Assembly: GCA_027622665.1 (NCBI GenBank)
Contig: JAQBYT010000023.1
Span: forward strand, 1-57,893
Length of the DNA stretch: 57,893 bases
Direction of reading: 5' to 3'
Origin: Verrucomicrobiota bacterium
GTDB lineage: Bacteria; Verrucomicrobiota; Verrucomicrobiia; Opitutales; Seribacteraceae
Numbering within the stretch: the stretch's first letter is position 1; each line of letters begins with the position of its first letter. The position numbers were made by a program, and so were the translations under genes. The notes beneath the pieces are model-generated. The model ran no database searches, was not told the DNA's origin, and saw nothing but the letters and a program-made list of their open reading frames with translations. Shown here one piece after another: positions 311 to 19,907 of this stretch.

Positions 311-316
311 ACGAGC

Positions 317-1143: not shown

Positions 1144-1173
1144 TTGACCGTATGCCTTAAAGGCATCCATAAT
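1144..1173 (+). promoter_or_regulatory. promoter of the brnT operon with an internal operator palindrome
   Basis: TTGACC (1144-1149), 18 nt, CATAAT (1168-1173); perfect inverted repeat ATGCCTT-A-AAGGCAT (1152-1166) in the spacer; ATG at 1182. Confidence 0.7.
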
Positions 1174-1181
1174 GTAGGGGT

Positions 1182-1755: not shown

Positions 1756-1781
1756 GCGTTCGCTGCGGGAGGATAGGGCGG

Positions 1782-1974: not shown

Positions 1975-2045
1975 TCCAATCGTGAAAGTTTTCCTTTTGT
2001 GTTCTTGCCCGTCCCGTGCAACGTTTCATCTTTTCCAATCTGGCT

Positions 2046-2258
2046 ATGAGACGGAAAATCAAGGGATACATTTTTCAATTCACGAGTGCAGACCATGACG
2101 GTCGGCACGTTCACGTTTATCGAGACAATTGCGAAATCGGCGTCTACGACAAGGTGGCCGGCCCCATACGTGGTTTGGAAAAGAAATGGAATGGGGAGTT
2201 GCGCGAAGCGATGAATGAGTTTATTAAAGAGCTTAATGAATGTGGTTATTTCCAGTGA
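2046..2258 (+). CDS. DUF4160-like small protein, putative TA component
   Basis: GYIFQFTSADHDGRHVHVY matches the DUF4160-type G.F.F.S.(E/D)H..xHVHV motif; start placed at the ATG at 2046. Confidence 0.65.
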   Translation: MRRKIKGYIFQFTSADHDGRHVHVYRDNCEIGVYDKVAGPIRGLEKKWNGELREAMNEFIKELNECGYFQ

Positions 2259-2496
2259 GCCCCGGGTAGCGGATCGGACGTGGTACGATGCCGCGACAGG
2301 CTTGCTCTACGTAGAGGCGGGCGGTTTGGCCGGGTCGCTGCGTTTGGCGGATTTGCCCGAGGAGGATTTCGAGTCCAAGGCTCCCTTGAGCGGTTTTGCG
2401 CTCGGGCAATCCGGAAGCGTGGTCGTGTGTCGCCATGAAGACGGTGAGGAAACTTGGTTTCCCGTCGACATGTGGTGGGAACGCCTCCCAAGTTGA
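2236..2496 (+). CDS. small acidic partner of the DUF4160-like gene, at the position usually held by DUF2442
   Basis: Overlaps the upstream gene by 23 nt; beta-rich and acidic, ending WFPVDMWW; family not recognised with confidence. Confidence 0.55.
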   Translation: MNVVISSEPRVADRTWYDAATGLLYVEAGGLAGSLRLADLPEEDFESKAPLSGFALGQSGSVVVCRHEDGEETWFPVDMWWERLPS

Positions 2497-2519
2497 ACTG
2501 ATTCGTCGTTAGGGGCCGA

Positions 2520-2553
2520 CTGGATTGCCATGTCCCGACAGGTTCGCAAGGAT
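2520..2553. repeat. degenerate REP right arm closing the array
   Basis: CTGGATTGCCATGTCCCGACAGGTTCGCAAGGAT, compared with consensus CTGGATTGCCACGCCCTGACGGGCTCGCAATGAC. Confidence 0.75.
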
Positions 2554-2705: not shown

Positions 2706-4073
2706 ATGTTGGAAGTCGAGGGCAGGGGAACCGGAAGTTTTTGCGATGGCGTGAGCCGACGGGATTTTCTTCGCGTGGGTTCCCTTGGTATGGGCGGATT
2801 GAGCCTGCCACAGCTTCTGCAGGCCGAAAAGGCGGCGGGAGTGGGAAGCTCGAACAAGGCGATCATCATGGTGTATATGGCGGGAGCGCCGCCGCATCAG
2901 GATTTGATCGACCCGAAGCCGGACGCCCCCAAGGAGGTGCGGAGCGAGTTCGGTCCCATTCCGACCAACGTAACGGGCATTCACATAAACGAATCGCTGC
3001 CCATGATGGCCAAGGTCATGGACAAGTGGACCGGGATTCGCTCGTTGGTGGGCGCCCCGGGAGGCAGTCACGACTCTTTCATGTGCTACACGGGCCGCGC
3101 GGGTTCGTTCTTTTTTGGTAAAAACGGGGGCAAGGCGCCTCCGGGCAATTGGCCGAGCATCGGTTCCAACGTTTCCAAGTTGATGGGACCGCTGACGCCG
3201 GGCATTCCCGCTTTCGTGGGATTGGCCCCCAAGGCCGGGCATCCGCCCTACGGTTCACCGGGGGAATGCGGTTTTCTTGGAGATGCCCACGGTCCTTTTC
3301 GCCCTTCCGGTCCCGCTCGGGCGGACATGGATCCGAAACCGGTGGGAGCCGGACGGATAGGGCGGCGAAAATCCTTGCTTGCGGGTTTTGATCACTTTCG
3401 CCGAAACCTTGATTTCGGCAACGACGTGGAGCAGATGGACGCCTTTACCCAACAGGCTTTCGGGGTGTTGACCTCCTCCCGTTTGAGCGAGGCGCTGGAC
3501 TTGGACAAGGAAGACCCCAAAATTCGCGAGCGCTATGGCAAGGGCGATCCCAAGAACTTCGGGGATGGAGCTCCCCGCAACAACGAGCATTTTCTTATGG
3601 CCAGACGCCTGGTGGAGGCTGGAGCCCGCGTGGTGACCCTGAATTTCGGTCGCTGGGACTTTCACTCCAATAACACTGCCGGAGTCAAGGGGCACGCTTC
3701 CATATTCGATCGCGGTTTGAGTGCCTTGATCGAAGATTTGCACGACCGCGGTCTGTCGAACGACGTCGCGGTGGTGGCATGGGGCGAGTTCGGACGTACG
3801 CCCAAGATCAACAACAAGGCTGGTCGCGATCACTGGCCTCAAGTCGGTTGCGGTTTCGTGGCGGGCGGGGGCATGAACCACGGTCAAATGATCGGTGCTA
3901 CCGATGCCTCGGCTTCGGAACCCACGGATAGACCCGTGCATTACGGCGAGGTGCACGCCACGCTATACGAGCATTTAGGCATAAATCCCTCTTCCGTAAC
4001 GGTTAAAGACCTTTCGGGTCGGCCCCACTACTTGGTGGACGGCTGGAATTCCTTGCCCGAACTGGTGGGGTAG
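2706..4073 (+). CDS. DUF1501 protein with Tat-like signal, copy 1
   Basis: FCDGVSRRDFLRVG, GAPPHQDLIDPKPDAP, ARRLVEAGAR, WDFH, WGEFGRTPKIN..GRDHW; start set at ATG 2706 by comparison with copy 2. Confidence 0.92.
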   Translation: MLEVEGRGTGSFCDGVSRRDFLRVGSLGMGGLSLPQLLQAEKAAGVGSSNKAIIMVYMAGAPPHQDLIDPKPDAPKEVRSEFGPIPTNVTGIHINESLPMMAKVMDKWTGIRSLVGAPGGSHDSFMCYTGRAGSFFFGKNGGKAPPGNWPSIGSNVSKLMGPLTPGIPAFVGLAPKAGHPPYGSPGECGFLGDAHGPFRPSGPARADMDPKPVGAGRIGRRKSLLAGFDHFRRNLDFGNDVEQMDAFTQQAFGVLTSSRLSEALDLDKEDPKIRERYGKGDPKNFGDGAPRNNEHFLMARRLVEAGARVVTLNFGRWDFHSNNTAGVKGHASIFDRGLSALIEDLHDRGLSNDVAVVAWGEFGRTPKINNKAGRDHWPQVGCGFVAGGGMNHGQMIGATDASASEPTDRPVHYGEVHATLYEHLGINPSSVTVKDLSGRPHYLVDGWNSLPELVG

Positions 4074-4090
4074 GAAGCGAGCGTCGTGGT

Positions 4091-4109
4091 GTGGCGCTTC
4101 GCAGGTTTT
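4091..4109 (+). repeat. 19-nt motif upstream of DUF1501 copy 2
   Basis: Identical to 2623-2641. Confidence 0.8.
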
Positions 4110-4218
4110 CAAGGGCATTTCCCTGGACGGTAAAAGATTGTCCCAAACAGGTGACTGTGCTCTATTGTTCTATATAACAGTTTCGCGCGCGGCCTAAATT
4201 TCAACTAAAGTCAGTACC

Positions 4219-5508
4219 ATGATAACGTTAACCGAAGGGAAGAGATCTAGTTTTTGTGATGGAGTTTCGCGGCGGGATTTTTTGAAGGTAGGCGGCTTGG
4301 GGATGGGTGGCATGAGCCTACCGGGATTGCTGCAGGCAGAAAACGAATTGGGAACGGGTTCCTCGCAGAAGTCGGTGATCATGGTTTTTCTGGCCGGCGG
4401 GCCTTCCCATCTGGACACCTTCGACTTGAAGGAGGATGCTCCGTCCGAGGTTCGCGGTGAGTTCGCTTCCATTCCGACTAATGTTTCGGGCATCAGAATC
4501 AGCGAATATCTTCCGGGGATAGCGAAGCAAATGGACCAGTGCTCCATAATACGCTCGATTGCCGATACGGTGAACAACCACAGCTCCTACCATTGCATGA
4601 CGGGTAGAGCGAAGAATGGACCGCAACCCGTTGGGGGCTGGCCTTCTATCGGTTCTGTGGTTTCGAAGGTGCAAGGCGACCACATGGGTACCCCGGGTTA
4701 TGTCGACATGGGAGGCGGAATAAAAAGCGGAGGCTTCCTCGGCACGACTCATGCAGGCTTCAGCAGCGGAGGTAAGGGTCGTTACGATATGGCCAAGCAA
4801 TCCAACATGAAGGAAATTCGCTACGCTTCCCGCAAGGGCTTGTTGCAAAATTTCGACCGTTTTCGACGCGATTGCGATGCAACAGGCATGATGAACGGTT
4901 TCGACGCCTTCAATCGGCAAGCTTTCAACATCATCACCTCCGAGAGGCTTGCCAAGGCTCTCGACTTGAAGAACGAGGAAGCCAAGACGGTCAAACGTTA
5001 CGGCAACGACTGCAAGAGTTTCCTCTTGGCCCGCAGGGTAGTGGAGGCTGGCGCCCGTTTCGTTACGCTGACCACCGGCGGATGGGATACGCACAACGAT
5101 AATTTCAACAAGCTTCGCGATAAGAACTTGCCTATCCTCGACAAGGGGGTGTCCAACTTGATTCAAGACCTTCGGGATCGCTCCATGCTGGACGACGTGA
5201 CGGTGATCGTTTGGGGCGAGTTCGGACGGACCCCGAAGATAAACAGCAAAGGAGGTAGAGATCACTGGAGCAAGGTGATGTCCGTGCTTCTTGCCGGAGG
5301 CGGCATGAACAACGGCCAAGTCATTGGCGCTTCCGACCCGAAGGGCGGCGAACCCGCGGACCGACCCGTGTACTTGGGCGAGGTTTTCGCCACTTTGTAC
5401 CGGAGCGTCGGTATCGATGTTTCGGAGGAACAATTGCAGGATCTTTCCGGAAGGCCCCAATACCTTGTCGACAATGGCTTGAGAGCACTTCCCGAGCTTG
5501 TCGGTTAA
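4219..5508 (+). CDS. DUF1501 protein, copy 2
   Basis: SRRDFLKVG, GGPSHLDTFDLK, GWDTH, WGEFGRTPKIN..GRDHW. Confidence 0.93.
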   Translation: MITLTEGKRSSFCDGVSRRDFLKVGGLGMGGMSLPGLLQAENELGTGSSQKSVIMVFLAGGPSHLDTFDLKEDAPSEVRGEFASIPTNVSGIRISEYLPGIAKQMDQCSIIRSIADTVNNHSSYHCMTGRAKNGPQPVGGWPSIGSVVSKVQGDHMGTPGYVDMGGGIKSGGFLGTTHAGFSSGGKGRYDMAKQSNMKEIRYASRKGLLQNFDRFRRDCDATGMMNGFDAFNRQAFNIITSERLAKALDLKNEEAKTVKRYGNDCKSFLLARRVVEAGARFVTLTTGGWDTHNDNFNKLRDKNLPILDKGVSNLIQDLRDRSMLDDVTVIVWGEFGRTPKINSKGGRDHWSKVMSVLLAGGGMNNGQVIGASDPKGGEPADRPVYLGEVFATLYRSVGIDVSEEQLQDLSGRPQYLVDNGLRALPELVG

Positions 5509-5547
5509 CCTTTTTCATCCCTTTCAACCAATCCAAATAAAACATTC

Positions 5548-8046
5548 ATGAAATTTGCCCGAATTGGAATTCTTAAAGCGGTTTCCTTGCTTATCGCTTC
5601 CACTTTCGCTAATGCCGCCGGATTAGGCGAAGCCGAAAAAATCACCCTCGGGTTTTCTGCCTTCGACGGAGACGCTATTTCCTTGAAGGGTATAGACGCT
5701 CGTCGGCAGTTGGTCATTACGGGTTTATTCTCGGATGGAAATGAGCGAGACCTTTCTCGCAAGGTGAAATACTCTTCGGAACCCGCCGGTGTCGTGGCCA
5801 TTGATGCAACGGGCTGGGTGAGCCCTGTAAAGGACGGGAAGACCAAAATCACCGTTGTGGCCAAGGGCGGAGCCACCGCCGCAGCGGAGATAACGGTTGA
5901 GGAGTCCGGTACCATTCAGCGGATCAATTTTCCCAATGAAATCACTCCTTTGTTCAGCAAGTATGGCTGCAACGGTGGTGGTTGCCACGGAAAGTCGGGA
6001 GGCCAAAATGGTTTTCGTCTTTCGCTCCTTGGTTTCGAGCCGCAAGAGGATTTCGAATACATCGTCAAGGAAGCTCGAGGGCGTCGCGTATTTCCGGCAG
6101 CTCCAGACCGTAGTTTGCTGCTTACCAAAGCGATTAACGACTCACCTCATGGCGGAGGAGCTAGGATTGAGAAGGGTTCGCTCGATTATCGGCTCATCCA
6201 TTCGTGGATAGCCCAAGGAATGCCTTACGGAAAACCCGATGATCCCACTCTCGAGAGTATCGCCGTTTTCCCCAAGGTCCGCATTATGGATATGGAAGGG
6301 GAGCAGCAGCTCGTAGTCACCGCCAAATATTCCGACGGCACGATGAAGGACGTCACTCGTTCCTCTGTCTACGAGGCGAACGACGAGGAGGTGGGCGAAG
6401 TGGATGAAAACGCTCATGTTGCCGTGTTCGAACAACCTGGGGACTTGGGCGTAATGATTCGCTACCAAGACAAGGTGGCGGTCTTTCGTGCAGTCGTGCC
6501 TCTCGGAGCTCCCGTGGATAATCTTCCCCCGGCTCGCAATTACGTGGATGAGTTTGTCTTCGCCAAGCTGAAAGCCGTGGGCATGCCTCCCTCTGAAATC
6601 TGCGACGATTCCACCTTCATTCGCCGGGTATCGATCGATGTCGGTGGTCGCTTGCCCACTCCCGAAGAGACCAAGGCCTTTCTTGCCGACAAGGATGCGA
6701 ACAAACGAGACAAGCTGATCGACCGATTGCTTGCCAGTACCGATTACGCGAACTTCTTTGCCAACAAGTGGTCTTCCCTCCTTCGAAACAAGCGCACCAA
6801 GACTTCCTACCAGCGAGGGAATTACGCCTTCCATGGATGGGTTCGCGACAGTTTGCACCAGAACAAGCCTTACGACCAGTTCGTTCGTGAAGTGGTGGCT
6901 GCCTCCGGTGAAATGCTTCATAACCCGGCCGTCGGCTGGTATCGCGAAGTAAAGACGGTACAAAACCAGCTCGAAGATACCGCCCAACTTTTTCTCGGTA
7001 CGAGGATTCAATGTGCCCAGTGCCATCATCATCCCTTTGAGAAGTGGAGCCAGAAGGACTATTACAAGTTGTCGGCCTTCTTTTCTCAAGTGGGACGAGC
7101 CAAGGGACGCTTGCCGGATGAGGATATTATTTTTCACAAGCGCGGCGTGGCTAAGGCCACCAACAAAAAGGACAACACTCCTGTTCAACCTGCCGGACTT
7201 GGAGCGGAATCTCCGGTGATTGCTTCTGATGATGATCCGCGACAAGCTCTCGTCGACTGGATGTCCGCCAAGGACAATCCATTTTTCGCACACACTTTCG
7301 TGAACCGCTATTGGAAGCACTTTTTCGGGCGTGGTTTAGTGGACCCCGAGGACGATATGCGCGAAACTAACCCTGCGGTGAATCCCGAACTGCTTCAGGC
7401 TCTGGCCGAAAAGTTTATTGAAAGCGGTTTCGACATGAAGGGTATAATTCGTGACCTTTGCCGATCAAAGACCTATCAGTTCAGCTCGATTCCCAACCGA
7501 TACAACGCCAAGGACAAGCATAACTTCTCTCGGCACTATCCACAGCGTCTGCAGGCAGAGGTTTTACTCGATTCGATCGATGACCTGACTGAGGTGCGCA
7601 CTGGTTTCAGTGGCCTTCCCGCTGGCACGCGAGCCACTATGCTCCCTGATAACAGCTTCAATCAGAAAAGCTATTTTCTCTCCGTGTTCGGGCGACCCGA
7701 CAACGCTAGCGCTTGCGAGTGCGAACGTTCGGGCGACGCCAGCTTGGCCCAGAGCCTTCACTTGATTAACTCCAAGGATATCCAAAGCAAGCTTACCAAT
7801 GGATCCAGTCGTGCTACAAAGTTGGCCAACGACAAGGACAAGACGGACGAGGAAAAAATCGAAGAACTCTATTATGCAGCCTTTTCCCGGGCACCCAAAG
7901 AAGGGGAATTGAAAATGGCCGTGAATTACGTTAATAGAGAAATTGAGGACGATAAAGGTGTGAAAAAGCCCGTGGCGAAGAAAGAAGCCTACGAAGACGT
8001 CGTCTGGGCCCTCTTCAATACCAAGGAATTCTTATTTAATCTGTAA
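5548..8046 (+). CDS. DUF1549/DUF1553 (PSCyt2/PSD1) protein with Ig-like domains
   Basis: Signal peptide; CNGGGCHG; CAQCHHHPFEKW; VNRYWKHFFGRGLVDP; ACECERS; C-terminal WALFNTKEFLFN. Confidence 0.92.
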   Translation: MKFARIGILKAVSLLIASTFANAAGLGEAEKITLGFSAFDGDAISLKGIDARRQLVITGLFSDGNERDLSRKVKYSSEPAGVVAIDATGWVSPVKDGKTKITVVAKGGATAAAEITVEESGTIQRINFPNEITPLFSKYGCNGGGCHGKSGGQNGFRLSLLGFEPQEDFEYIVKEARGRRVFPAAPDRSLLLTKAINDSPHGGGARIEKGSLDYRLIHSWIAQGMPYGKPDDPTLESIAVFPKVRIMDMEGEQQLVVTAKYSDGTMKDVTRSSVYEANDEEVGEVDENAHVAVFEQPGDLGVMIRYQDKVAVFRAVVPLGAPVDNLPPARNYVDEFVFAKLKAVGMPPSEICDDSTFIRRVSIDVGGRLPTPEETKAFLADKDANKRDKLIDRLLASTDYANFFANKWSSLLRNKRTKTSYQRGNYAFHGWVRDSLHQNKPYDQFVREVVAASGEMLHNPAVGWYREVKTVQNQLEDTAQLFLGTRIQCAQCHHHPFEKWSQKDYYKLSAFFSQVGRAKGRLPDEDIIFHKRGVAKATNKKDNTPVQPAGLGAESPVIASDDDPRQALVDWMSAKDNPFFAHTFVNRYWKHFFGRGLVDPEDDMRETNPAVNPELLQALAEKFIESGFDMKGIIRDLCRSKTYQFSSIPNRYNAKDKHNFSRHYPQRLQAEVLLDSIDDLTEVRTGFSGLPAGTRATMLPDNSFNQKSYFLSVFGRPDNASACECERSGDASLAQSLHLINSKDIQSKLTNGSSRATKLANDKDKTDEEKIEELYYAAFSRAPKEGELKMAVNYVNREIEDDKGVKKPVAKKEAYEDVVWALFNTKEFLFNL

Positions 8047-8097
8047 GGAAATCCAACCGCAACTTTAAGAGACGGGAAGGATCTTTAGAAAAAAATT

Positions 8098-9477
8098 ATG
8101 AACGCCAACGCATTCGGTTGCGAAGAGTTTCGTAGAAACCTTGCGATTGACCGACGTGGTTTCGTCAAGGCAGGCGCCTTGGGCATGGCGGGGCTTTCCT
8201 TGCCCCAAGTGTTAAAGGCCGAAAGCACTGCTGATGCGGCAAAGACTTCCAACGAGAAGTCCGTCATCATACTGTGGCAGCGGGGAGGCCCCAGTCAGCA
8301 CGAGACATGGGATCCAAAACCAGACGCTCCACAGGATTACCGTGGAGCTTTCGGCGCGATGTCCACCAACGTGCCCGGCATACAAATTTGCGACCTCTTG
8401 CCGAAGTGCGCCAAGGTGATGGACAAATTTTCCATTATTCGAAGCCTCTACCATACCGATGCAGGGCATTCCGCCGGCGACCAGATAATGTTCACGGGGT
8501 ATCCGCCAAACAAGGGAAACCCTAATGAGAACTATTATCCGAGCTGCGGCTCGATCGTAGCTGAGCAACAAGGGCACTTGAATCCCGAATTGCCTCCCTA
8601 CGTTATGATTCCCAAGCGTCTGCCCGGTGTCGACCCGGCTTACCTGGGGAAAAAATACGCCGCGTTCGAGACACAGGCCGATCCTGCCGTCGAAGGTCCC
8701 TTCAATCTACCAAATTTCTCCTTGGGAGATTCTCTTTCTCTTAACCGACTTGATTCCCGTAAGGGACTTCTAAAGTCTTTTGACGACATTCGGCGAGAGG
8801 TCGACGTTTCCGGTTCGATGGAAGCAGCCGATGGTTTCAACCAACAAGCCTTTGATATCCTGACAAGCCCGAAGGCTCGAGATGCTTTCGATTTGGATGC
8901 CGAGCCTCGCGCTCTTCGGGAGCGTTACGGCTTCATGCCCGAGTACAAGGCTCCCACGCCTGATCGTTGCGGCGTGCCCGCATGGAGTCAGCGCATGCTC
9001 TTGGCTCGACGATTAGTGGAGGCCGGCGTACGTCTCGTGACTGTTGACCTTCGATGGTGGGATACGCACGTCAAAGGGTACGAAACTATGCGCGACGGAT
9101 TTCTCCCCAGATGGGACCAAGCCTATTCGGCTTTGTTGCAGGATCTTGAAGATCGTGGATTATCGGACAATGTAATGGTCGTGGCTTGGGGAGAATTTGG
9201 TCGTACTCCCAAGGTGAACTCTACCGGCGTGCGAGATCATTATCCGAATGTCTTCAGCGCCTCCGTTTCAGGTGGAGGAATCCAGGGTGGGCGGGTCGTC
9301 GGGGAATCGGATTCCAAGGGCGCTGAACCAAAGGAGCGTCCCGTGAAACCTCAAGATGTTTTGGCGACGATGTATCGGCATCTCGGCATCGACGTCACCA
9401 AGCAGTACCTCGATCATGGGGGACGTCCTGTTCCCGTTTTGCCATTCGGGACACCGATCGACGAGTTGTTTTCCTAG
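8098..9477 (+). CDS. DUF1501 protein, copy 3
   Basis: DRRGFVKAG, GGPSQHETWDPKPDAP, ARRLVEAGVR, WDTH, WGEFGRTP. Confidence 0.93.
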   Translation: MNANAFGCEEFRRNLAIDRRGFVKAGALGMAGLSLPQVLKAESTADAAKTSNEKSVIILWQRGGPSQHETWDPKPDAPQDYRGAFGAMSTNVPGIQICDLLPKCAKVMDKFSIIRSLYHTDAGHSAGDQIMFTGYPPNKGNPNENYYPSCGSIVAEQQGHLNPELPPYVMIPKRLPGVDPAYLGKKYAAFETQADPAVEGPFNLPNFSLGDSLSLNRLDSRKGLLKSFDDIRREVDVSGSMEAADGFNQQAFDILTSPKARDAFDLDAEPRALRERYGFMPEYKAPTPDRCGVPAWSQRMLLARRLVEAGVRLVTVDLRWWDTHVKGYETMRDGFLPRWDQAYSALLQDLEDRGLSDNVMVVAWGEFGRTPKVNSTGVRDHYPNVFSASVSGGGIQGGRVVGESDSKGAEPKERPVKPQDVLATMYRHLGIDVTKQYLDHGGRPVPVLPFGTPIDELFS

Positions 9478-9567
9478 TTTTCGCAGCAACCTCTCTTGAA
9501 AAAAGGTACAATCTTCAGGCGTTTCCATTGACTCGCTCGCACTTGCTCAAGAATATCTATCAATTAT

Positions 9568-12500
9568 ATGCTTAGAATCTGCTCCTTTGTTGCCTTTCCG
9601 GCTCTCTTTTCTCTTGTTTTCGGACAATTGCCTTCAGCTCGATTTGATCGAATCTATCCACCCTCAGCCAAACAGGGCACTGAGGTCGAGGTGAAGATCG
9701 CCGGAGTCGATCTGGAGGGCCTGAAGTGGATGAAGTTTTCCCATGATGCTCTTAAGGCAGAGCCTAAGAAGGATGACGATGGCGAAATTGTGCCCAATGT
9801 ATACCTCGTGAAAATCGCCGGAAACGCACCCCTTGGCATTCACAAGGCTTGGATCGGTGGTGGCAAATTCGGTGCATCGAACTACCGTTCCTTTGTCGTA
9901 GGCGACTTGCCCGAAGTGGAAGCCGGCTCCGGAGGTGCCTCGATGGAAAAACCTTTTGAGATGGAACTTGGGCAAACTGTTCTTGGAAAGGCTCCTGCAG
10001 GTAAATACGGTTGGTTCAAGTTCGCCGCCAAAAAGGGCCAACGGATATTGGCGGAGGTTACGACCAAGGACATAGACTCCCAGCTCATGCCCTCCATCTC
10101 TCTTTACAATGCTGCCGGATTACAGCTCGAAAATGATCCTCAGGGTGGTTTGTTGGATTTTACCGCTTCCTCCGATGGGGACTTCTTCGTGCGACTTAAC
10201 GATTTTCTCTACAAGGGTGGCGATGACTATGTTTACCGCCTCTCAGTTACGACTAGAGCGCGTATCGATATGGTCTACCCTCCCTTGGGTAAGGCAGGAA
10301 CGAATGCAAAATTTACCGTCTATGGACGCAACTTGCCCGGTGGGCAACCATCCGAATGGAAGACTCGAGACGGCAAGATTCTTGAGAAGAAGGAGATACA
10401 GGTTCAACTTCCCGCCGGGGATGCTCGGGCGAAACTGACATTGACGGACTATCTTGATCCGCGTCGGGCTGCTCTCGACCACCTGGAATACAGGCTCAAG
10501 TCACCACAAGGCACCTCCACCGCAGCTTTCATCGGTTACGGAGTCGAGAACCCGATTTACGAGACCGACTCCGACAATGACCTTCCGGAAAAAGCTCAGG
10601 TGGTGAACGTTCCTTGCGAGTTCGTAGGTAAATTTTATCCTTCCGCCGACAAGGACAGGATTCGCTTTAGCGCGAAGAAAGGGGACACTTACCGCATAGA
10701 AATTCTGTCCGAGCGTTTAGGGCGTCCTTCCCACGCGTTCCTCCTTCTGGAGCAGTTGACCAAGAAGGACGACGGCAATGAAACGGCCAAGGAAATTGGA
10801 CAATCTCTGGAAACCACCTCGACTCTTGGCGGACAAATCTTCGACATCTCGACTCGCGACCCTTCTTTACGTTTTGAAGCTTCCGCGGATGCAGATTACC
10901 GTATCCTCGTCTACGACCTCTTCAATTCTTCGTCCGATCCTTTGAACGTCTATCGGCTTTCCATCCGCAAGGAGTCGCCCGACTTTCGTCTCGCGGCCTA
11001 TGGCGTGCTTCCTCCTCCGGCTCAAAATGCCAGTCCCATATTTGTCAAGTCGCCAACCATTCGCAAGGGGGAAGCTTTTCCCGTAAAGGTCTTGGCTCTA
11101 AGGCGAGATGGCTTCAAGGAAGCCATTGACTTGGAGGTCGTGGGATTGCCGGCTTTCATTTCTTACTCCCCGAAACGGATACCTGTGGGAGCGGATTCAG
11201 TGACTGTTCTTTTTCAAGCCTCTGACAAGGCGACCGATTGGGATGGCTTATTCTCGATGACAGGTAAATCCAAGGTGGGCGGCAAGGATGTTCGCAGGGA
11301 TTGTCGATTTGCGGACGTATGTTGGAGCTCCTACGACAACCAAGACAAGATAGCGGTGTCGCACATCCAAGTCGTCCAGAAGACTCCCCTAGCCGTTATG
11401 GGTCGCGAAAGCACCCCCGTGAGGGTCGTTTTCGACGATGCCAAGTTGGCTGAGACTGCCAAAAAGGCCGTCGAGAGTGCGGAGACAGCTTCCCAAGAGG
11501 CAGATGGAAAAGCGGTGGAGGCTCAATCCAAGTTGAAGGCTCCCGTGGATGCCGAGAGTAAGGCTGAACAGGAATTTGCCGCGAAAAAGAAAGAATTGGA
11601 AGACAAGGAGAAGGCCAGGGCGGACCTTGCCGACAACCGTATCAAAACTGCAAAGGAAAAGCTCGCTCAGGCTCAGTCGGCTGCTACCAAGGCTGATGCC
11701 GAAAGCAAGACGACCACCGCCGCCCAAAAGGCGGTCACTGTAGAGGTGACCAAAGCCAAGGCTTCCTTGGATGCTGCGGATAAGGCTGCCAAGGCCGCCG
11801 GAGTTACTGCTGTCGCCGCGAAGGGTAAGGCGACTACTGCCGCCGCTGTCTTAGCCACTGCCACCAAGAACATGGCCGTGAATAAGACCGCTGTTGCGAC
11901 TTCCAAGAAGGCTTTGGATGGATTGGTTGCAACGAAACAGAAGCCGGCTATGACTGCAGTTGCCTCAGCGACCACCGCCTTGACGGCGGCTACCGTGTTG
12001 AAGTCCACCGCCGACAAAACTCTGGCGACCGATAAGGCGAAGCTGACGAAAGCGACCACCGATTTTGAGGCTGCCGACAAGGTTGCCAAGACCGCCGAAG
12101 CTAATTCCAAGGCCTTCGCTGCAGATCCCAACAAGCCGAAACCCGAAAAGGACAAGGCTATGGCCGATGCCTTGGCGAAGCGGAAGCTTGCCACAGTGGC
12201 GATGACTGCGCTTGCCACGGCGACGACGGTCCATGCCACGGCCATGACAAAGGTGACCGCTGATGCCGCTGGCCTCACTACGGCGACCACCAAAAAGACC
12301 ACCGCCGAGAAGGGTCTTGTAGCCGTCAATCTCATGGTGACTAAGGCCATGGCTGATCTAAAGACCGCCGAGACGGCCCTTACTGCGACGGAGACCACGA
12401 TGAAGGCTGCCGCAACCGTCGACACCAAGGCAAAAACGGACTCGGCGGGGGCCGATAAACTGGCGACCGATACTCTCGCCTCGGTCACTACGGCCAAGAC

Positions 12501-14040
12501 GGCCCATGACCAACTAATTAATGCCAAGCTCAATCCGGCCAACCAAAAAGTAGTTGCTGCAGCCAAGACTTTGACGGATTCGAAGGCCATGGCGGATACG
12601 GTCGGCAAGGAAGTGGCTCAATTGGAGGTAGAACTAAAGAAAGCGATTCAGGAGATTGCGACTGTAACGACCGGAGTTAAGCAAACCGAGACCAATGTCA
12701 CTGCCGCCAAGGTATCGGCAGATAAGGCCCGATCCGAATTGGCATCCGCGAAAGCCGCCCAAGCCGGGAGGAAGGCCGAACTTGAGTACCGTAGGGTTGA
12801 GTTGGTTGCGGCCAACAAGCTCAAGGATACTCCATCTTCCGATTTGCGTGTATTCGAGACCGCCGTATCGGGAATCATCAAAATTCCGGTTAAGCTAGAT
12901 TCCACGGATGATTTCAAGGCCCAAACCAAGGTCAAAATCTACGGGCATTCGGAATTTTCCAAAGTCAAGGAGATCGATATCGACCCCAAGAAGAAGAACG
13001 AGGGGGTTCTCGAGTTGAACTTGGCAACTGCTAAGCTTCCCGCGGGGGAGTTTTCGCTTTTTTGTTCCGCTCAAGTGAAGGGAAAATACAAGATGGTTTC
13101 CGAGGACGAGGCCAAAAAGGCCACGGAAGACGCAAAGAAGGTAGATGAGCAGTTTAAGGCGGCCAAAGCAAAGGCAGCGGAAACCAAGAAGGCATTCGAT
13201 GAAGCCAAGAAGAAGTTGGACCAAGACAAAGCCGCCCAAAAGGCGGCGGAAGCCGAACTGGTTCGCACGAAGGCCGATCACGACAAGGCAAAAGTCGCCT
13301 GGGATTCTGGGGAAACCCAAGCCAAGCAAGCCGAAGATAAAACCAAGAGTATTCTTGCCGACGCCGGAAAGCCTCAACCTGAAAAGGACGCGGCTCAAAA
13401 GGATTCATCCGGCAAGCGAAAAGCCGCCAACGACTTGAAACTTGCCTTGGACAAGCTTCTCGCCGAGCGGCTAAAGCCAGCCGAGCAAAAGCTTGCCGAT
13501 TTGAGTAAGTCGCTTCCCTCGTCCGAGAAGACCCTTGCGGAAGCTGATGAAAAACAGAAGGACGGTGCATCCGAGTCGACGAAACTGGAGGCGAAGAAGA
13601 AGAAGGTCGATGCTTTGGCCAAGACTATAAACGATGCTTTCAATAAACCCAAGGATCTTACCGTAACCCTTTTCACCAACCCATTTACCCTGAAAGTACG
13701 GAAGGCGCCTGTCGAGGTGAAGCCAGTGGGCGACCAGGCGTTGAAAGCGGGCGAGAAGTTGTTGCTCGACGTAGGGATCGAACGTCTCTTCGGTTTCGCC
13801 GACCAAGTTAGTTTCAAGGTCGTTCCTCCAAATGGCGCCAAAGGAATTACCGCGAAGGCATTCAACGTGGTCAAGGATGGTTATGGCGCGACTTTGGAAC
13901 TCTCCAGCACTGTGGCCACTCCGGCAGGTGAGTATGAGTGCGAGCTCCAGGGAACCTTGACGTTCAACAACCAGAACATCACCATCAAGGAATCATTCGT
14001 TTTGAAGGTGGAGGCAGGCCCGGAGAAGAAAGCGGGCTAA
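9568..14040 (+). CDS. secreted PPC (pre-peptidase C-terminal)-domain protein with two long Ala/Thr/Lys coiled-coil insertions
   Basis: N-terminus IYPPSAKQGTEVEVKIAGVDLE, SNYRSFVVGDLPEV, F.AKKG PPC repeats; low-complexity helical inserts at about 11440-12830 and 13100-13650. Confidence 0.88.
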   Translation: MLRICSFVAFPALFSLVFGQLPSARFDRIYPPSAKQGTEVEVKIAGVDLEGLKWMKFSHDALKAEPKKDDDGEIVPNVYLVKIAGNAPLGIHKAWIGGGKFGASNYRSFVVGDLPEVEAGSGGASMEKPFEMELGQTVLGKAPAGKYGWFKFAAKKGQRILAEVTTKDIDSQLMPSISLYNAAGLQLENDPQGGLLDFTASSDGDFFVRLNDFLYKGGDDYVYRLSVTTRARIDMVYPPLGKAGTNAKFTVYGRNLPGGQPSEWKTRDGKILEKKEIQVQLPAGDARAKLTLTDYLDPRRAALDHLEYRLKSPQGTSTAAFIGYGVENPIYETDSDNDLPEKAQVVNVPCEFVGKFYPSADKDRIRFSAKKGDTYRIEILSERLGRPSHAFLLLEQLTKKDDGNETAKEIGQSLETTSTLGGQIFDISTRDPSLRFEASADADYRILVYDLFNSSSDPLNVYRLSIRKESPDFRLAAYGVLPPPAQNASPIFVKSPTIRKGEAFPVKVLALRRDGFKEAIDLEVVGLPAFISYSPKRIPVGADSVTVLFQASDKATDWDGLFSMTGKSKVGGKDVRRDCRFADVCWSSYDNQDKIAVSHIQVVQKTPLAVMGRESTPVRVVFDDAKLAETAKKAVESAETASQEADGKAVEAQSKLKAPVDAESKAEQEFAAKKKELEDKEKARADLADNRIKTAKEKLAQAQSAATKADAESKTTTAAQKAVTVEVTKAKASLDAADKAAKAAGVTAVAAKGKATTAAAVLATATKNMAVNKTAVATSKKALDGLVATKQKPAMTAVASATTALTAATVLKSTADKTLATDKAKLTKATTDFEAADKVAKTAEANSKAFAADPNKPKPEKDKAMADALAKRKLATVAMTALATATTVHATAMTKVTADAAGLTTATTKKTTAEKGLVAVNLMVTKAMADLKTAETALTATETTMKAAATVDTKAKTDSAGADKLATDTLASVTTAKTAHDQLINAKLNPANQKVVAAAKTLTDSKAMADTVGKEVAQLEVELKKAIQEIATVTTGVKQTETNVTAAKVSADKARSELASAKAAQAGRKAELEYRRVELVAANKLKDTPSSDLRVFETAVSGIIKIPVKLDSTDDFKAQTKVKIYGHSEFSKVKEIDIDPKKKNEGVLELNLATAKLPAGEFSLFCSAQVKGKYKMVSEDEAKKATEDAKKVDEQFKAAKAKAAETKKAFDEAKKKLDQDKAAQKAAEAELVRTKADHDKAKVAWDSGETQAKQAEDKTKSILADAGKPQPEKDAAQKDSSGKRKAANDLKLALDKLLAERLKPAEQKLADLSKSLPSSEKTLAEADEKQKDGASESTKLEAKKKKVDALAKTINDAFNKPKDLTVTLFTNPFTLKVRKAPVEVKPVGDQALKAGEKLLLDVGIERLFGFADQVSFKVVPPNGAKGITAKAFNVVKDGYGATLELSSTVATPAGEYECELQGTLTFNNQNITIKESFVLKVEAGPEKKAG
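11809..12465 (+). repeat. coiled-coil coding segment homologous to 16075-16731
   Basis: Colinear with a constant 4266-nt offset at three anchors: KxKATT (11821/16087), KRKLA (12178/16444), DKLA (12454/16720). Confidence 0.9.
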
Positions 14041-14091
14041 TAATAGGGCTTTTTTGAAGAATTTATTTCCGGCTAAGTAGTTATTAAAAAT

Positions 14092-17000
14092 ATGAAAACT
14101 TTCACTATCGTTGCATCTTCCATTTTGCTTTGCGGGAATGTCTTTGGAGCTGGTTTGGAGGTAAAGGAGCTCAAACGAGACAAACCAGTCGACTTCCAGT
14201 CCGAGATCTTGCCAATCTTGCGAAGCAATTGCTTGGCTTGCCACAACCGTACTCGCTCCAAGGGTGACGTTATCCTAGAGACACCTGCAGACATACGAAA
14301 GGGTAACGACGACGGTTCTTTCGTTGAACCCGGAAAGGCCAAGGACAGTTTTCTTTTCACAATTGCCGCCCATCTGGACGATCCTGTCATGCCGCCTTCC
14401 AAGAACAAGGTCGGCGCCAAGAACATGAAGCCGGATGAACTTGGATTGCTGAAGTTGTGGATTGAGCAAGGCGCCAAGGGAGAAATGCGAGCAGCCGCAC
14501 CGGTGGTATGGCAATCCTATCAACGGGAAACCCCTCCGATTTATGCCGTTGCCGCCGGTCCTCATGGGCGTTTCGCCGCTGCCGGTCGCGGCAACCAAAT
14601 CCATCTCTACGATGCGACTGTCGGCAAGATGCTCGCCAATCTTACCGATCCGTCGCTGGCCAAGCACGGATTCTACGGTGCAAACGATGCGGCTCATCTA
14701 GACGTGGTCAACGCTCTGGCCTTTCATCCCAATGGCCGTCTTCTTGCCTCGGGTGGTTTTCGGGTCGTTAAACTTTGGCAAAGATCGGCTCCCGCTAAGA
14801 AAAAGGAATTTGTGGTCAAGGCTTTGGATGGTGTTCGAGCAGTGAGTTCCGATGGGAAATGGCTCGCAGTGGCCGAGGAAAACAACCAAACGGGCCTATG
14901 GGATCTTAGCCAAGGTAAGCGCGTTCGAGGTCTTGAAAAGCTGCAACCGCCCGTCAAAGGTCTCGCATTTTCCCCCAATTCCGCCCGACTCGTGTCAGGT
15001 GCGATCGACGGTTCCGTTCGTGTTTGGAACGTAGCCGACGGCAAATTAGTGGCCGAGACCGTTCACGAGCAGGGTGCCGGTTCTGTTGCGATATTGGGTG
15101 AAGAGGGCAAGTGGTTCGCCTCCGCTCATGCCGACAAGATCATACGAGTTTGGGAGCTTCCGGCAGAGCAGGGCGGCGAGGTCAAGATGCTCAAGGAATT
15201 AAAGGGGCACACCGGGGACGTGACCATTCTTGTAGCTATGCCTAACGATCCCAAGCAACTTGTTTCCGGAGCCAAGGACAACACTGCCCGTATTTGGAGT
15301 GCCGAAGGGGGTACTGCGATTCGAAGTATTAGCGTGGGGGTCCCTGTGCTTTCCCTTGCCGTTTCTTCCGATGGTCAGCGAATTGCCACTTCGGATGGAA
15401 GTAATGTCGTGCGCTTGTGGAATGCAACCAATGGTCAGAAAGTCGTCGATTTGCAAGGGAACACCAGATTGTCTCGAGATACTTCTCGCGAGGATGGTGA
15501 ACTCGCCTTCTCTAAGGCCGAGGTAAAGTACTTTACCGACGAACTGAAGAAGCGTGGCGACGAGAAGAAGACAGTAATCGATCGCAGGACCAAGGGCGAG
15601 AAGGACCTCAAGACTGCTCAGGAAAAACCTATAGCCGAGAAAAAAGTTGCCTCCGACAAGGCTAGGACCGAGCGAGATGCTGCTGACAAAAAGGTTGAGG
15701 AAACTACGAAGAAGGCCGAAGAAACTCAAAAGGCTTTCGAAGCAAAGGAGACCGCCTCCAAGGAAGCGGACGCCAAGTCCAAGGACGCAACAGCCAAGGC
15801 CACGGCCCCGGAAGCTGCCGAGAAGAAGGCTGTGGAGGATGTTGCCGTCAAGAAGACTGCCGCTGCCGCTGCCCAAAAGGCCTTGGATACCTTCATCGCT
15901 ACCATGCAGAAACCTGCCACGACGGCCGCGACGACCGCTGCAACCGGCTTGACCAAGGCGACTACTGACAAGGCCGCTGCGGACAAGGCTCTCGTCACTG
16001 CCAAGACTGTATTGACGAAGGCGACTACGGATTCTCAAGCCGCCGACAAGGTGTCTGCGGCCGTCGCCGCCGCCGCCGCCACTGCCAAGACGAAGGCGAC
16101 GACTGCCGCCACTGCCTTGGCCAACGCCACCAAGGATACTACCACCAAGAAAACTACGGTTGCCACGGCGAAGAAGGCGTTGGACACGCTAGTCCCCACC
16201 GAACAGAAGCCCGCTATGACTGCTGCGACGACGGCTGCAACCGCCTTGTCCACGGCGACCACTGACAAGACCGCTGCGGACAAGGCTCTCGCCACTGCCA
16301 AGACGACCCTGACGAAGGCGACCACGGACTACAATAACGCTGAGGCTGTAGCCAAGACGGCGGAAGCCAAGGCGAAGGCCATTGCCCTTGAGACCCAGAA
16401 GCCCCAGGCGGAAAAGGACAAGGCTACTGCTGATGCCGTCGCCAAACGCAAGCTTGCAACCACTGCGAAGACTGTTCTCACCACCGCGACGACCGTTCAC
16501 ATCGCGGCCACGGCAAAGGCTACTGCCGCCGGCACGGTCTTTACCACCGCTACCACCAACAAGGCGAATGCGGACAAGGCCCTTGTCGGCATCAATCAAA
16601 TGGTAACCACTGCCATGGCTACCCTGAAGGCGGCCGAAACGGCTCTTACTGCGGCCGAAGCCGTTACGAAAACCGCCGTGACTGCCGATGCCAAGGCCAA
16701 GACTGACTTGGCTGCCGCGGACAAGCTTGCAGGGGAGAAGAGGGCTTTGGCGACAACTGCCAAGACGGTCCTGACCACCGCGACGACAGCACAAACTACG
16801 GCCACGACCATGGCTACCGTCACAGGCACTGCCTTCACTACCGCCACCACCAACAAGGCGAATGCGGACAAGGCTTTGGTTACGGCTGAAGCCGGAGTGA
16901 AAAAGGCTCGCGAAACTCTTGCGGCTTCACAAGTGGCCTTGACGGAATCAGAGAAAAAGGCTGTCGCCGAAAAAGTGATTGCCGACAAGGCCCGAAAGGT

Positions 17001-18285
17001 GCGCGACGACGCGACCAAGGTTCTTGCGGACACCAAGAAGGTCTTTGGCGAGGCCCAAAAACTTCGAGACGATTCAAAAAAGGCGAAAACCGACTCGGAC
17101 GCCGACGCAAAGACAAAGGAAGCTGCCTTGACGAAGGCTGAAAAGGAATATCTTGATATTGAAAATCCACGAGCGCAGTTCGAACGCGAATTGAAGCGTG
17201 CCGGCCAAGACCTCGTAAAGGCAGAGGCCAAGGAAAAGGAATACCAAGGTTTCAAGACCTCTGCCGAAAATGACGAGAAACGAGAAACCGATGAAAACAA
17301 AGCTTCCAAGGAGACTCTCGCTGTTGCCGCCAAAACTCTTTTGCGGACCATAGGCTTTTCTCCTGATGGTGCGGTTCTCTATGCTGCGGGTGACGGTAAA
17401 TATGCTCAAGTGTGGAATGCGGGTGACGGTCAACCGCTTGAGTCGATCGAATTAAGCGAGGCCGGAGTGGACTTTCTTGCTTTTACTGAAGACGGCAGCC
17501 TCTGTGTCGCCAAGGGAGATACTTCCGCCTTGTGGGATGTTTTCGGAAAATGGGAATTGAGCAAGGTTCTCGGCGGAGAAGAGGCAGCCTCTCCAATTGT
17601 GAATCGCGTAACTTCCCTCGATTTCAGTCCGGATGGTAAACACCTCGCCAGTGGTGGTGGTGATCCGAGCCGAACCGGAGAAATACTCGTCTGGAATCTC
17701 GAAGACGGTAAATTGATCCATAATCTTCCCGGGGTTCACAGCGATACCGTTTATGCCATCGAGTTTTCCCGCGACGGTAAGCGTTTGGCATCGGGTGCTG
17801 CCGACAAGTTTGCCCGTGTCACGGAAATCAAGACCGGGGCGCTTGTCCATTCTTTCGAAGGTCATACCCACCATGTCATGGGAGTAAGTCTTCAGGCTAA
17901 CGGTCGGGTTCTCGCAAGTGTCGGGGCGGACAAGGAGATCAAGGTCTGGAATGTTGTGAACGGTGACCGAGCCGGCAAGGGTGGCGGCTATACCAAGGAG
18001 ATAACTTCCATTCGTTTTGTAGGCTATGGCGACAACGCTCTCATCACCACTGCCGACAAGAAGGCCAAGGTCATTCGCGTGCCACTGGGGAATCCGGGGA
18101 ATGTTCGTGATCTTTCCGGGGTTGTCGACGTAATGCATGCCGGGGACGTCTCACGTAATGGAAAGGTTGCTGTGGCAGGAGGCGAGGATGGCGTTTTCCG
18201 CGTATGGAACATTGCGGACGGCAAAGCTTTGCAGACCTTTGAGTCTCCCGCGAAGGAAGACCCTGACGGCCTTACTGCGAATTGA
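14092..18285 (+). CDS. planctomycete cytochrome c plus WD40-repeat protein with a long coiled-coil insertion
   Basis: VDFQSEILPILRSNCLACH (heme motif), MPP, LWIEQGA; multiple WD40 repeats (GHT..V, LAFSPxG, VRVWN); A/T/K-rich insert at about 15470-17330. Confidence 0.92.
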   Translation: MKTFTIVASSILLCGNVFGAGLEVKELKRDKPVDFQSEILPILRSNCLACHNRTRSKGDVILETPADIRKGNDDGSFVEPGKAKDSFLFTIAAHLDDPVMPPSKNKVGAKNMKPDELGLLKLWIEQGAKGEMRAAAPVVWQSYQRETPPIYAVAAGPHGRFAAAGRGNQIHLYDATVGKMLANLTDPSLAKHGFYGANDAAHLDVVNALAFHPNGRLLASGGFRVVKLWQRSAPAKKKEFVVKALDGVRAVSSDGKWLAVAEENNQTGLWDLSQGKRVRGLEKLQPPVKGLAFSPNSARLVSGAIDGSVRVWNVADGKLVAETVHEQGAGSVAILGEEGKWFASAHADKIIRVWELPAEQGGEVKMLKELKGHTGDVTILVAMPNDPKQLVSGAKDNTARIWSAEGGTAIRSISVGVPVLSLAVSSDGQRIATSDGSNVVRLWNATNGQKVVDLQGNTRLSRDTSREDGELAFSKAEVKYFTDELKKRGDEKKTVIDRRTKGEKDLKTAQEKPIAEKKVASDKARTERDAADKKVEETTKKAEETQKAFEAKETASKEADAKSKDATAKATAPEAAEKKAVEDVAVKKTAAAAAQKALDTFIATMQKPATTAATTAATGLTKATTDKAAADKALVTAKTVLTKATTDSQAADKVSAAVAAAAATAKTKATTAATALANATKDTTTKKTTVATAKKALDTLVPTEQKPAMTAATTAATALSTATTDKTAADKALATAKTTLTKATTDYNNAEAVAKTAEAKAKAIALETQKPQAEKDKATADAVAKRKLATTAKTVLTTATTVHIAATAKATAAGTVFTTATTNKANADKALVGINQMVTTAMATLKAAETALTAAEAVTKTAVTADAKAKTDLAAADKLAGEKRALATTAKTVLTTATTAQTTATTMATVTGTAFTTATTNKANADKALVTAEAGVKKARETLAASQVALTESEKKAVAEKVIADKARKVRDDATKVLADTKKVFGEAQKLRDDSKKAKTDSDADAKTKEAALTKAEKEYLDIENPRAQFERELKRAGQDLVKAEAKEKEYQGFKTSAENDEKRETDENKASKETLAVAAKTLLRTIGFSPDGAVLYAAGDGKYAQVWNAGDGQPLESIELSEAGVDFLAFTEDGSLCVAKGDTSALWDVFGKWELSKVLGGEEAASPIVNRVTSLDFSPDGKHLASGGGDPSRTGEILVWNLEDGKLIHNLPGVHSDTVYAIEFSRDGKRLASGAADKFARVTEIKTGALVHSFEGHTHHVMGVSLQANGRVLASVGADKEIKVWNVVNGDRAGKGGGYTKEITSIRFVGYGDNALITTADKKAKVIRVPLGNPGNVRDLSGVVDVMHAGDVSRNGKVAVAGGEDGVFRVWNIADGKALQTFESPAKEDPDGLTAN
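16075..16731 (+). repeat. coiled-coil coding segment homologous to 11809-12465
   Basis: See 11809-12465; also has internal duplications with 297-nt and 294-nt offsets. Confidence 0.9.
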
Positions 18286-18350
18286 TGGTGGTAGTCGATC
18301 TTTCCCGAACTGATTCTGCGAGGTCTTTCGCGAAACTGGAAATTCCGAAG

Positions 18351-19907
18351 CTATTCTTCCTTAAGCGTAGAAAGCATTTCCGCATCTAAGTACTTCTTTA
18401 CCGTTCGGCGATCCATGCCGAGTCGACGAGCTACTTCCTCGTACTTCCCAGTCTTTGCGTAGACAAGGGTGACGTAGCGACTTTGTAGTTCCTCGAGGGG
18501 TATGGAACCCTCAGTGAAGTCGTTCGCAAGCAGTTCTGCCTGTGAATGGGGAATAGATAACTCTTCCGGATGGTATTCACGATGAATGAGGATGTTGCGG
18601 ACGCATTGCTGGAGTTCTCGGAAATTGCCTGGCCAAGGGTAGTCCGAACCGAGTTTGCGATTTATCCAATTGCAGGTTTCATCAGCCAGTGGAGAAGCTT
18701 CGTCAAGACCGGCTACTCGTCCGGCTACGAATTCGACGAGGTGCTCGAGCTCGCCTGGCGAATCTCTCAGTATCTCTTCTAGTGAGGGAGTGCTGATTCG
18801 GTTAGCGCATAAACGATAGTAAAAATCCTCCCGGAATCGTCCCGCCTTCATTTCCTCTGCAAGGTCTCTGTTTGTGGCAGCGATCACCTTGCCTTCGAAT
18901 CGGGTGGGTTGAACTTCCCCGAGTCGCTGGAAACGGCGGGTCTGAAGTACGCGGAGAAGTTTTACCTGAGCCTCCGGTTTTGTCTCGGTAATTTCGTCGA
19001 GGAAGACGGAACCATGCATTCCACAGGTTTCAAAGTAGCCTTTCCTGTTTTGGAGCGCTCCGGTAAAGGCTCCCTTGGCATGCCCGAACAATTCTGACTC
19101 GAGAAGAGTTTCGGAGAGAGCGGACAAGTTGATGGGATGGAAGTCGGCAAGGAAGTCCGACGCGAACCTGCCCGTTTTTTCATCATAGGGAATGAAGCGC
19201 GAAAGGCCGATGGCGCGAGCCACCAGTTCCTTACCTGTGCCGGATGGTCCGCTGATGAGCGTGGTAATGTCTCCAAGACGACCACAAAGAGAACGTAGGT
19301 AGCGAAGCATGTCGTGTGTGAAAATAGACTCCCAGACTCGAGCACGTAGGGCTTCGAGTGCGGGAGAGTTTCCGACTATGGCATTGAAAATATGGAAAAA
19401 CGCGCGCCTGACCTGAAAAAACAGGGCGAAAAGGTGGGGTGCGGAAAATCCCACGGGAGTTAGATTTTCTTTTTCGGGAAAGAACCAGGAGAAACGTTTG
19501 GCGAAGGTGCGGAAAAAGGCCCCGTGGTTTTCACTTTCTGTTTCGCGTTCGTGAGCCAGTTCGATTTTTTTGATGAAGTAATCCCGCACTTCGTCGAAAA
19601 GGGCAAGGAAGGCGAGATCGCGATAGAGGGTGAAGTCCTTAGCCGGGAGTTTTCCCTTACCCTTGCGTTGGAGGATGGTTTCACGAGCCTTGTCGGCTAG
19701 TTTTCCCGCCGCTCCTAGTTTCACTAGATTCGGACTGAATAAACGCCGGCTATGTTCTCCGATGTTTGGCGAACTCGGGTCCTCGTAATCGTGACCCAAG
19801 ATTGCTCTCTCCAACTCTTGTCGCTTGGGAGTAAAGGGATTACAGGCAAGCAAGCTAGAGAGGTTCTCGGCCGAACGACGTTCGTCTGAGGAGAATAGTG
19901 GTGTCAT
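18351..19907 (-). CDS. sigma-54-dependent enhancer-binding protein with an unrecognised N-terminal domain
   Basis: Walker A GPSGTGKE, ESELFGH.KGAFTGA, FLDEI, FREDFYYRL, WPGNFREL; C-terminal Fis-like HTH (VARRLGMDRRTV). Confidence 0.93.
   Translation of the reverse strand: MTPLFSSDERRSAENLSSLLACNPFTPKRQELERAILGHDYEDPSSPNIGEHSRRLFSPNLVKLGAAGKLADKARETILQRKGKGKLPAKDFTLYRDLAFLALFDEVRDYFIKKIELAHERETESENHGAFFRTFAKRFSWFFPEKENLTPVGFSAPHLFALFFQVRRAFFHIFNAIVGNSPALEALRARVWESIFTHDMLRYLRSLCGRLGDITTLISGPSGTGKELVARAIGLSRFIPYDEKTGRFASDFLADFHPINLSALSETLLESELFGHAKGAFTGALQNRKGYFETCGMHGSVFLDEITETKPEAQVKLLRVLQTRRFQRLGEVQPTRFEGKVIAATNRDLAEEMKAGRFREDFYYRLCANRISTPSLEEILRDSPGELEHLVEFVAGRVAGLDEASPLADETCNWINRKLGSDYPWPGNFRELQQCVRNILIHREYHPEELSIPHSQAELLANDFTEGSIPLEELQSRYVTLVYAKTGKYEEVARRLGMDRRTVKKYLDAEMLSTLKEE

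Follow-up and report, generated by a model that had tools for sequence, protein, structure and literature searches.

A putative mobile helical arm cassette shared by two neighbouring genes of a Verrucomicrobiota DUF1501–PSCyt cluster

The locus

The window analysed here is a stretch of 57,893 nucleotides (nt; positions 1–57,893) of contig JAQBYT010000023.1 of a Verrucomicrobiota bacterium, whose genome is designated G000. It contains a run of genes in the order DUF1501, DUF1501, Big_2/PSCyt2/PSD1, DUF1501, PPC-like and PSCyt1/WD40 (Table 1). The PPC-like and WD40 genes, which close the run, encode globular proteins interrupted by long helical inserts ('arms'), and share the central part of one such arm. 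We describe this module as a real, apparently undescribed mobile arm cassette within a known gene cluster; the shared segment would be one allele in a small family of such cassettes. No family model or paper on the module was found in the literature searched, although supplements outside the search could mention such inserts.

Table 1. Genes, arms and other elements of the locus (window positions)
Feature	Position	Strand	Remarks
REP-like repeats	14–2552		cluster of short repeats, both orientations (D8–D13, I3–I4)
DUF1501 protein	2706–4073	+	RRDFL Tat-like motif; ORF listed from TTG 2574; ATG 2706 agrees with homolog starts
DUF1501 protein	4219–5508	+	Tat-like motif
Big_2/PSCyt2 (DUF1549)/PSD1 (DUF1553) protein	5548–8046	+	CxxCH at residue 489; armless here
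DUF1501 protein	8098–9477	+
PPC-like multi-Ig protein	9568–14040	+	1490 residues; signal-like hydrophobic N-terminus, no later transmembrane helix; two helical inserts
PPC arm S1	11434–12843	+	470 residues (623–1092), helical, probable antiparallel hairpin of ~35 nm; site empty in family-B orthologs
Shared tract, PPC copy	11770–12501	+	core 11809–12465 (residues 748–966); Thr/Ala/Lys-rich; 99-residue outgoing unit, turn, 98-residue returning unit
Kink motif LVATKQKPA	11923–11949	+	residues 786–794; Pro-Ala invariant in alignment A1
Turn DPNKPKPEK	12124–12150	+	residues 853–861; S1 midpoint, central helix break of the structure model
PPC arm S2	13102–13641	+	180 residues, between two strands of an Ig-like domain; related turn motif at residue 1265
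PSCyt1/WD40 protein	14092–18285	+	1397 residues; CxxCH at residue 47; signal-like N-terminus, no later transmembrane helix
WD arm	15460–17337	+	626 residues (457–1082), between WD40 blades; ~46 nm as a hairpin
Extra outgoing unit of WD arm	15796–16031	+	repeated 297 nt (99 codons) downstream, 73% nt identity (D3)
Shared tract, WD copy	16036–16767	+	core 16075–16731 (residues 662–880); turn ETQKPQAEK at 16390–16416, arm midpoint
Extra returning unit of WD arm	16750–16874	+	294 nt (98 codons) after 16456–16580, 80% nt identity (D2)
Sigma-54 activator	18351–19907	-	convergent with the operon
ORF, open reading frame; REP, repetitive extragenic palindromic; Tat, twin-arginine translocation.

Two neighbouring genes share a coding tract

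The two cores (11809–12465 and 16075–16731) align without a gap at a constant offset of 4266 nt, as a sequence-only reading of the window had proposed, and the sequence landmarks that it quoted do occur. Identity covers 138 of 219 residues and 445 of 657 nt, distributed over first, second and third codon positions as 169, 181 and 95 (each out of 219). The sequence is of low complexity, with Ala, Thr and Lys making up ~63–69% of residues. Shuffling residues in 10,000 runs produced a mean of 36.8 and a maximum of 56 identities, and shuffling heptad blocks in 14,000 runs a mean of 51 and a maximum of 76. Among the 2717 ORFs of at least 219 residues compared in the genome, the next-best match reached 44 identities. 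The ~219-residue core originally noticed is part of a tract of ~244 residues (735–978 in the PPC-like protein, 649–892 in the WD40 protein), which is in turn only the centre of longer inserts. Identity per 40 residues is 21–28 within 120 residues of the turn and 6–17 farther out.

Compared with each other, the core copies differ by 1.49 synonymous (dS) and 0.24 non-synonymous (dN) substitutions per site, a dN/dS ratio of 0.16 that indicates constraint. With third positions near saturation, the pair goes back to an old copying event and has been under purifying selection, which a collapsed repeat would not explain. Mis-assembly is not supported, because an independent contig (L047) repeats the two-gene layout with both long genes at 92–98% amino acid identity. 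Single contigs from two sequencing runs, either of which may be the source DNA of this window, span positions 8000–19000 with 2 differences (X3) and 9231–19000 with 0 (X1). Contigs from RNA libraries cover parts of both cores; DNA may be present in these libraries, and expression level is not readable from them. One such contig (X15) joins places at window 15873–16217 with 22 other letters between them, possibly representing another arm variant or organism.

Arm anatomy and predicted fold

The helical module was suggested to sit inside otherwise globular proteins, and indeed arm S2 separates two strands of an Ig-like domain and the WD arm lies between WD40 blades. The cassettes are built of units of 98 or 99 residues (~14 heptads) and feature a QKPA kink and the turn pattern D..K..EK..A...KRK. 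Repeat spacings of 297 and 294 nt correspond to 99-residue outgoing and 98-residue returning units, and the arm grows symmetrically about its central turn. The heptad period is 3.50–3.54 in both arms. A single-sequence AlphaFold2 (AF2) model of S1 is nearly all helix with a break at 233–240 of 470 (predicted local distance difference test, pLDDT, 67), and a corresponding model of S2 shows a helix–turn–helix between two strands (pLDDT 60). Judged by eye, a turn-like motif occupies the midpoint of 9/10 PPC S1 arms in family A, which includes the window genome, and of 11/12 PPC and 11/11 main WD arms in family B, the family of G488, whose operon is orthologous to that of the window. This midpoint placement holds irrespective of arm length; the exceptions are G007 PPC2, G494 PPC and G499 WD site 1.

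Heptad periodicity, the modelled helix–turn–helix and the midpoint turn suggest that the inserts are antiparallel coiled-coil hairpins of ~35 and ~46 nm, growing at the tip. Such a fold would keep both ends of the insert on the globular domain and direct the turn outward. Six tip residues (K94, E97, K109, E113, K124 and R125) are invariant across rows that are only 32–43% identical, and both arms are basic, with net charges of +17 and +24. No domain or membrane anchor is present at the arm tips. Pfam searches with 12 module rows returned only a weak PUMA_CC match (E 0.004) in 2 of the 12. The matches listed by Foldseek for the S1 model were helical bundles of generic kinds, BAR-like or ciliary, with a best E of 7e-4. 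The best entry in an ESM Atlas search (0.86; recognition 1210) carries no name and is a lead at most. Prediction of a complex between the PPC and WD cores scored 0.00 twice, with controls not folded, and is used neither for nor against binding.

Copying and exchange between genes and lineages

On a tree of 33 arm tips, the PPC and WD labels require 5 changes, and PPC tips fall beside WD tips from the same family and of the same type. Two P0003 rows (near-copies) and tips missed by the search pattern, such as that of G496 PPC, were left out of this tree. A single PPC clade is rejected (approximately unbiased (AU) test, p 0.0006), which suggests repeated copying between PPC and WD genes. Three tip types are each common to a PPC and a WD gene. 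Together with the gapless core identity, the tip tree bears out the earlier proposal that a helical module was copied between adjacent genes.

Trees of the globular domains indicate that arm alleles cut across host phylogeny: long PPC alleles do not form a clade (p 1e-7), nor do T/A-type WD alleles (p 3e-14). The PPC-like homolog P0002 has an arm of 470 residues, compared with 164 in its 84%-identical sister from G013. Between the PPC genes of G000 and G004, dS is 0.17 in the core and 0.41–0.73 in adjacent segments, a difference that points to lateral exchange. It is very probable that the cassette was copied repeatedly between PPC and WD40 genes, exchanged between lineages and inserted elsewhere. 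The direction was probably from WD to PPC, given that each side of the WD arm has two units and that three species have WD arms of the T/A type.

Other hosts of the module

The module is not confined to the two neighbouring genes. Module units also occur in DUF1549/1553 proteins, sometimes at least 10 in one protein, and in PA14 and NPCBM proteins. In four of the DUF1549/1553 proteins (L081–L084), encoded within DUF1501 clusters in further Verrucomicrobiota families, the N-terminal ~1100–1250 residues consist of tandem module units. An unrelated gene carries a ~100-codon in-frame insert in L115 and L118 at a site that is empty in the homologs L117 and L119; the length between flanking anchors is 116 residues in L115/L118 versus 16–17 in L119/L117. 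The inserted DNA is 78–82% identical to a PPC arm, and a third carrier of the same insert (L116) is frameshifted. The L120 protein (G514:C9) has a hydrophobic segment at its N-terminus and, at its C-terminus, a ~90-residue module piece that the homologs L121 and L126 lack.

Within the window genome, the module is found in just these 2 of 3870 ORFs, and a paralogous PPC gene on contig C44 is armless; a tblastn search of the genome revealed no further copy and no intergenic one. C44 also encodes a WD40 paralog, whose ~500-residue C-terminal Ala/Lys helical tail is unrelated. Two unlinked genes of G007 have 411 nt in common, with 85% identity. A second, diverged PPC paralog (47% identity) lies between the PPC and WD40 genes of this genome (L026, G007:C48, 1868–5056) and has its own arms of 122 and 93 residues. 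The family is small, comprising 61 clusters among 1.84 billion representatives, and the module was detected in 5/401 sampled Verrucomicrobiota genomes at E 1e-12. A metagenome scan confirmed it in 3/600 stretches, and a scan of genome contigs at at least 1 locus. Carriers are named by their sources as Opitutales, Verrucomicrobiales, Pedosphaera, subdivision 3 and Lentisphaerae.

Arm lengths in related operons

The arms of relatives range from 71 to 626 residues and occur in mixed combinations. In family A, the PPC S1/WD lengths are 470/626 in G000 and L047, 273/430 in G003, 164/430 in G013, 273/355 in L048 (the PPC value completed by ~12 residues from its class), 200/354 in the G079 group and 199/286 in G015. 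G004, which combines a long PPC arm with a short-type WD arm on pieces of two contigs, was excluded from the counts, as was the WD end of G001, which lies at a contig end with an odd join. Between PPC and WD lengths, rho is 0.51 (p 0.30, n 6), or 0.13 without G000. The module is present in 22/31 genomes of family B, where the S1 site is empty and arm lengths are 71–381 residues at PPC S2, 9–294 at WD site 1 and 234–427 at the main WD site. Across 11 complete family-B operons (G500, with a truncated WD gene, was dropped), rho is −0.14 between the PPC arm and the main WD arm. It is 0.83 between PPC S2 and WD site 1 (n 11), a value that includes non-independent kin and leans on four related 71/9 genomes.

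The difference between WD and PPC arms stays within 154–157 residues in 3/6 same-contig lineages (G000/L047, G003 and G079/G078/G066); the others show 266 (G013), 82 (L048) and 87 (G015). Where a tip type is common to PPC and WD genes, the length pairs are 197/355, 273/430 and 470/626, always 156–158 residues apart. In G007, a 197-residue type-1 PPC arm lies beside the start of a T/A-type (type-3) WD arm. The 'length-matched stalks' of the earlier interpretation are not supported: the arms of the window itself measure 470 and 626 residues, and single contigs hold mixed long and short pairs. The co-variation expected between the two genes is seen for WD site 1 and in the three lineages with a constant offset, but not for the main WD arm.

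Favoured reading and its competitors

On balance, we favour a reading in which the arm cassette is spread by recombination and forms prefoldin/Skp-like tentacles on a periplasmic complex. Related arm DNA in two genes would allow ectopic recombination or gene conversion to copy the central tract across, and the arms lengthen symmetrically about the turn. Folded back as antiparallel coiled-coil hairpins, the inserts would project as basic tentacles 35–46 nm from a secreted heme-c complex, and the conserved tip may contact a polyanion or other arms. Selection would preserve the fold and the tip while tolerating several-fold changes in length. With its changes in length, swaps between genes and landings in unrelated genes, the stretch resembles a mobile building block more than it does a ruler made of matched parts.

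Among the closest known systems, prefoldin and Skp project long helical hairpins from a beta-rich body, and the arms of Skp are basic, as here; those arms, however, are much shorter, do not vary in length and are not known to pass from gene to gene. Homology of sequence or fold to either was seen neither in the Pfam searches (12 rows) nor among the Foldseek matches listed for the S1 model. Rickettsia palindromic elements insert coding stretches in frame into unrelated genes that have empty-site homologs, and filled and empty sites are both seen here. In contrast to those elements, the present insert is longer, its hosts belong mostly to one protein system, no intergenic copy was found in the window genome and its DNA shows no clear palindrome (z −2.34 and −1.50 for the DNA fold against 20 shuffles, no long stem). 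Bacterial stalk and adhesin proteins undergo inter-gene conversion and repeat shuffling, with unit-wise length change and mosaic alleles resembling those described above, but they are linear tandem arrays, whereas the arms described here sit in subunits that are not homologous and grow to equal extents on both sides of a central turn.

Several observations weigh against this reading. The C-terminal PPC segments also show low dS to G004 (0.27–0.28), so that the swapped tract may exceed the core, and the patchy distribution of long alleles could partly reflect repeated loss. The direction of the copying is unrooted. Among close orthologs, core dN/dS is 0.41–0.75, compared with ~0.1 in the globular parts, which would fit a near-passenger as well. 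The G079 group holds an offset of 154 even though its arms lack sequence likeness (36/200). Both structure models are single-sequence and of low confidence (pLDDT 67/60; predicted template modelling score 0.38/0.34), informing on secondary structure and not on packing. The tentacle role is drawn by analogy only, and we give it an even chance.

The strongest competitor, to which we attach a distinctly smaller but appreciable probability, is that the arm is a tolerated passenger, a closed helical hairpin that drops harmlessly into surface loops of secreted proteins and is kept folded by selection but jobless. Its landing in unrelated genes (L115/L118 and L120), the frameshift in L116, the armless C44 paralog and orthologous operons that work with 71-residue arms and empty sites are all compatible with such a passenger, as is the relaxed dN/dS among close orthologs. 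A passenger would not readily account for the dN/dS of 0.16 between the two copies, the invariant tip residues or the retention of hundreds of extra residues, nor for the gain of arms by the same subunits at differing sites in two families. The lack of a strong DNA hairpin and of further tblastn matches in the window genome also speaks against it.

Rather unlikely, in our view, is a portable docking arm, by which every secreted protein that gained the cassette through recombination would be recruited tip-to-tip or arm-to-arm into a shared periplasmic scaffold. If true, Verrucomicrobiota would use a single self-folding, telescoping coding unit, moved between non-homologous genes, to rewire both DUF1501/cytochrome complexes and carbohydrate-binding proteins.

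A matched pair or ruler, with PPC and WD arms side by side and their lengths in fixed relation to span a set distance, was part of the initial proposal and is somewhat less probable still. The offset kept in three lineages, one of them (G079/G078/G066) without arm sequence likeness, and the correlation between PPC S2 and WD site 1 in family B leave part of this proposal standing. The lengths are nevertheless not fixed to each other, as illustrated by the same-contig mismatches in G013, L048, G015 and G007 and by the correlations for the main arms in both families. A constant offset follows already from in-register copying of the central tract, no domain or anchor is present at the tips, and a 6-kb block of upstream subunits is 98–100% identical between long-arm G000 and short-arm G003. 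A strict ruler is unlikely.

Swapping of arm alleles to vary an exposed structure under pressure from phages or grazers would be consistent with allele classes that disagree with species trees and pass from one lineage to another. This is very improbable, since dN/dS never rises above 1 in any segment and the signal-like N-termini and heme motifs suggest a periplasmic location; PSCyt products have been predicted to be periplasmic or cytoplasmic (He et al., PMC5615132). Compositional convergence of Ala/Thr/Lys helices, or mis-assembly, can practically be dismissed despite the low sequence complexity, given the shuffle controls, the saturation at third positions, the layout repeated on contig L047 and the existence of protein clusters with 10–28 members.

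The locus clearly exemplifies a coding module whose copies pass between genes that are not homologous, whose growth is symmetric about its own midpoint and whose alleles segregate across species. Domains can thus be shuffled although neither a mobile element nor a palindrome is evident. The module also provides a handle on the abundant DUF1501–cytochrome system of the Planctomycetes–Verrucomicrobia–Chlamydiae (PVC) bacteria, through naturally occurring arms of 71–626 residues, sites with and without the insert, and a tip that is invariant.

The surrounding gene cluster

The gene run is the PVC DUF1501–PSCyt/PSD1 four-gene cluster, proposed to encode a membrane-targeted redox machinery (Kamneva et al. 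2012; PMC3542564). That study describes these four gene types along with signal peptides and heme motifs, whereas the window has three DUF1501 genes. The main text of that paper does not use the word 'coiled', and its section 22 mentions no shared arm. In the window, three proteins match DUF1501, with twin-arginine-type motifs (RRDFL, RRGFV) among them, and both the PSCyt/Big_2/PSD1 and the PSCyt1/WD40 proteins are present. The WD40 protein matches PSCyt1 (E 6e-11) as well as WD40, and the Big_2/PSCyt2/PSD1 protein has no PSCyt1 match at E 0.001. The label 'PPC' given earlier to the first arm-bearing protein applies through homologs such as P0002, which is 76% identical, bears the name 'Opitutales bacterium' and has PF04151; the window protein itself has no Pfam match. 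Sequencing runs holding this DNA are marine, estuarine or aquatic.

The genome (4.5 Mb) contains about 67 DUF1501-like and 45 DUF1549/1553-like ORFs. Window positions 3300–9600, comprising two DUF1501 genes, most of the third and the DUF1549/1553 gene, are 98–100% identical to G003, another species of the same genus, with flanks only ~90% identical; judged from this identity profile, the block appears to be a recent cross-species recombination tract. The REP-like repeats upstream gave 71 blastn matches on 27 contigs, 38 of them within 3 kb of a contig end.

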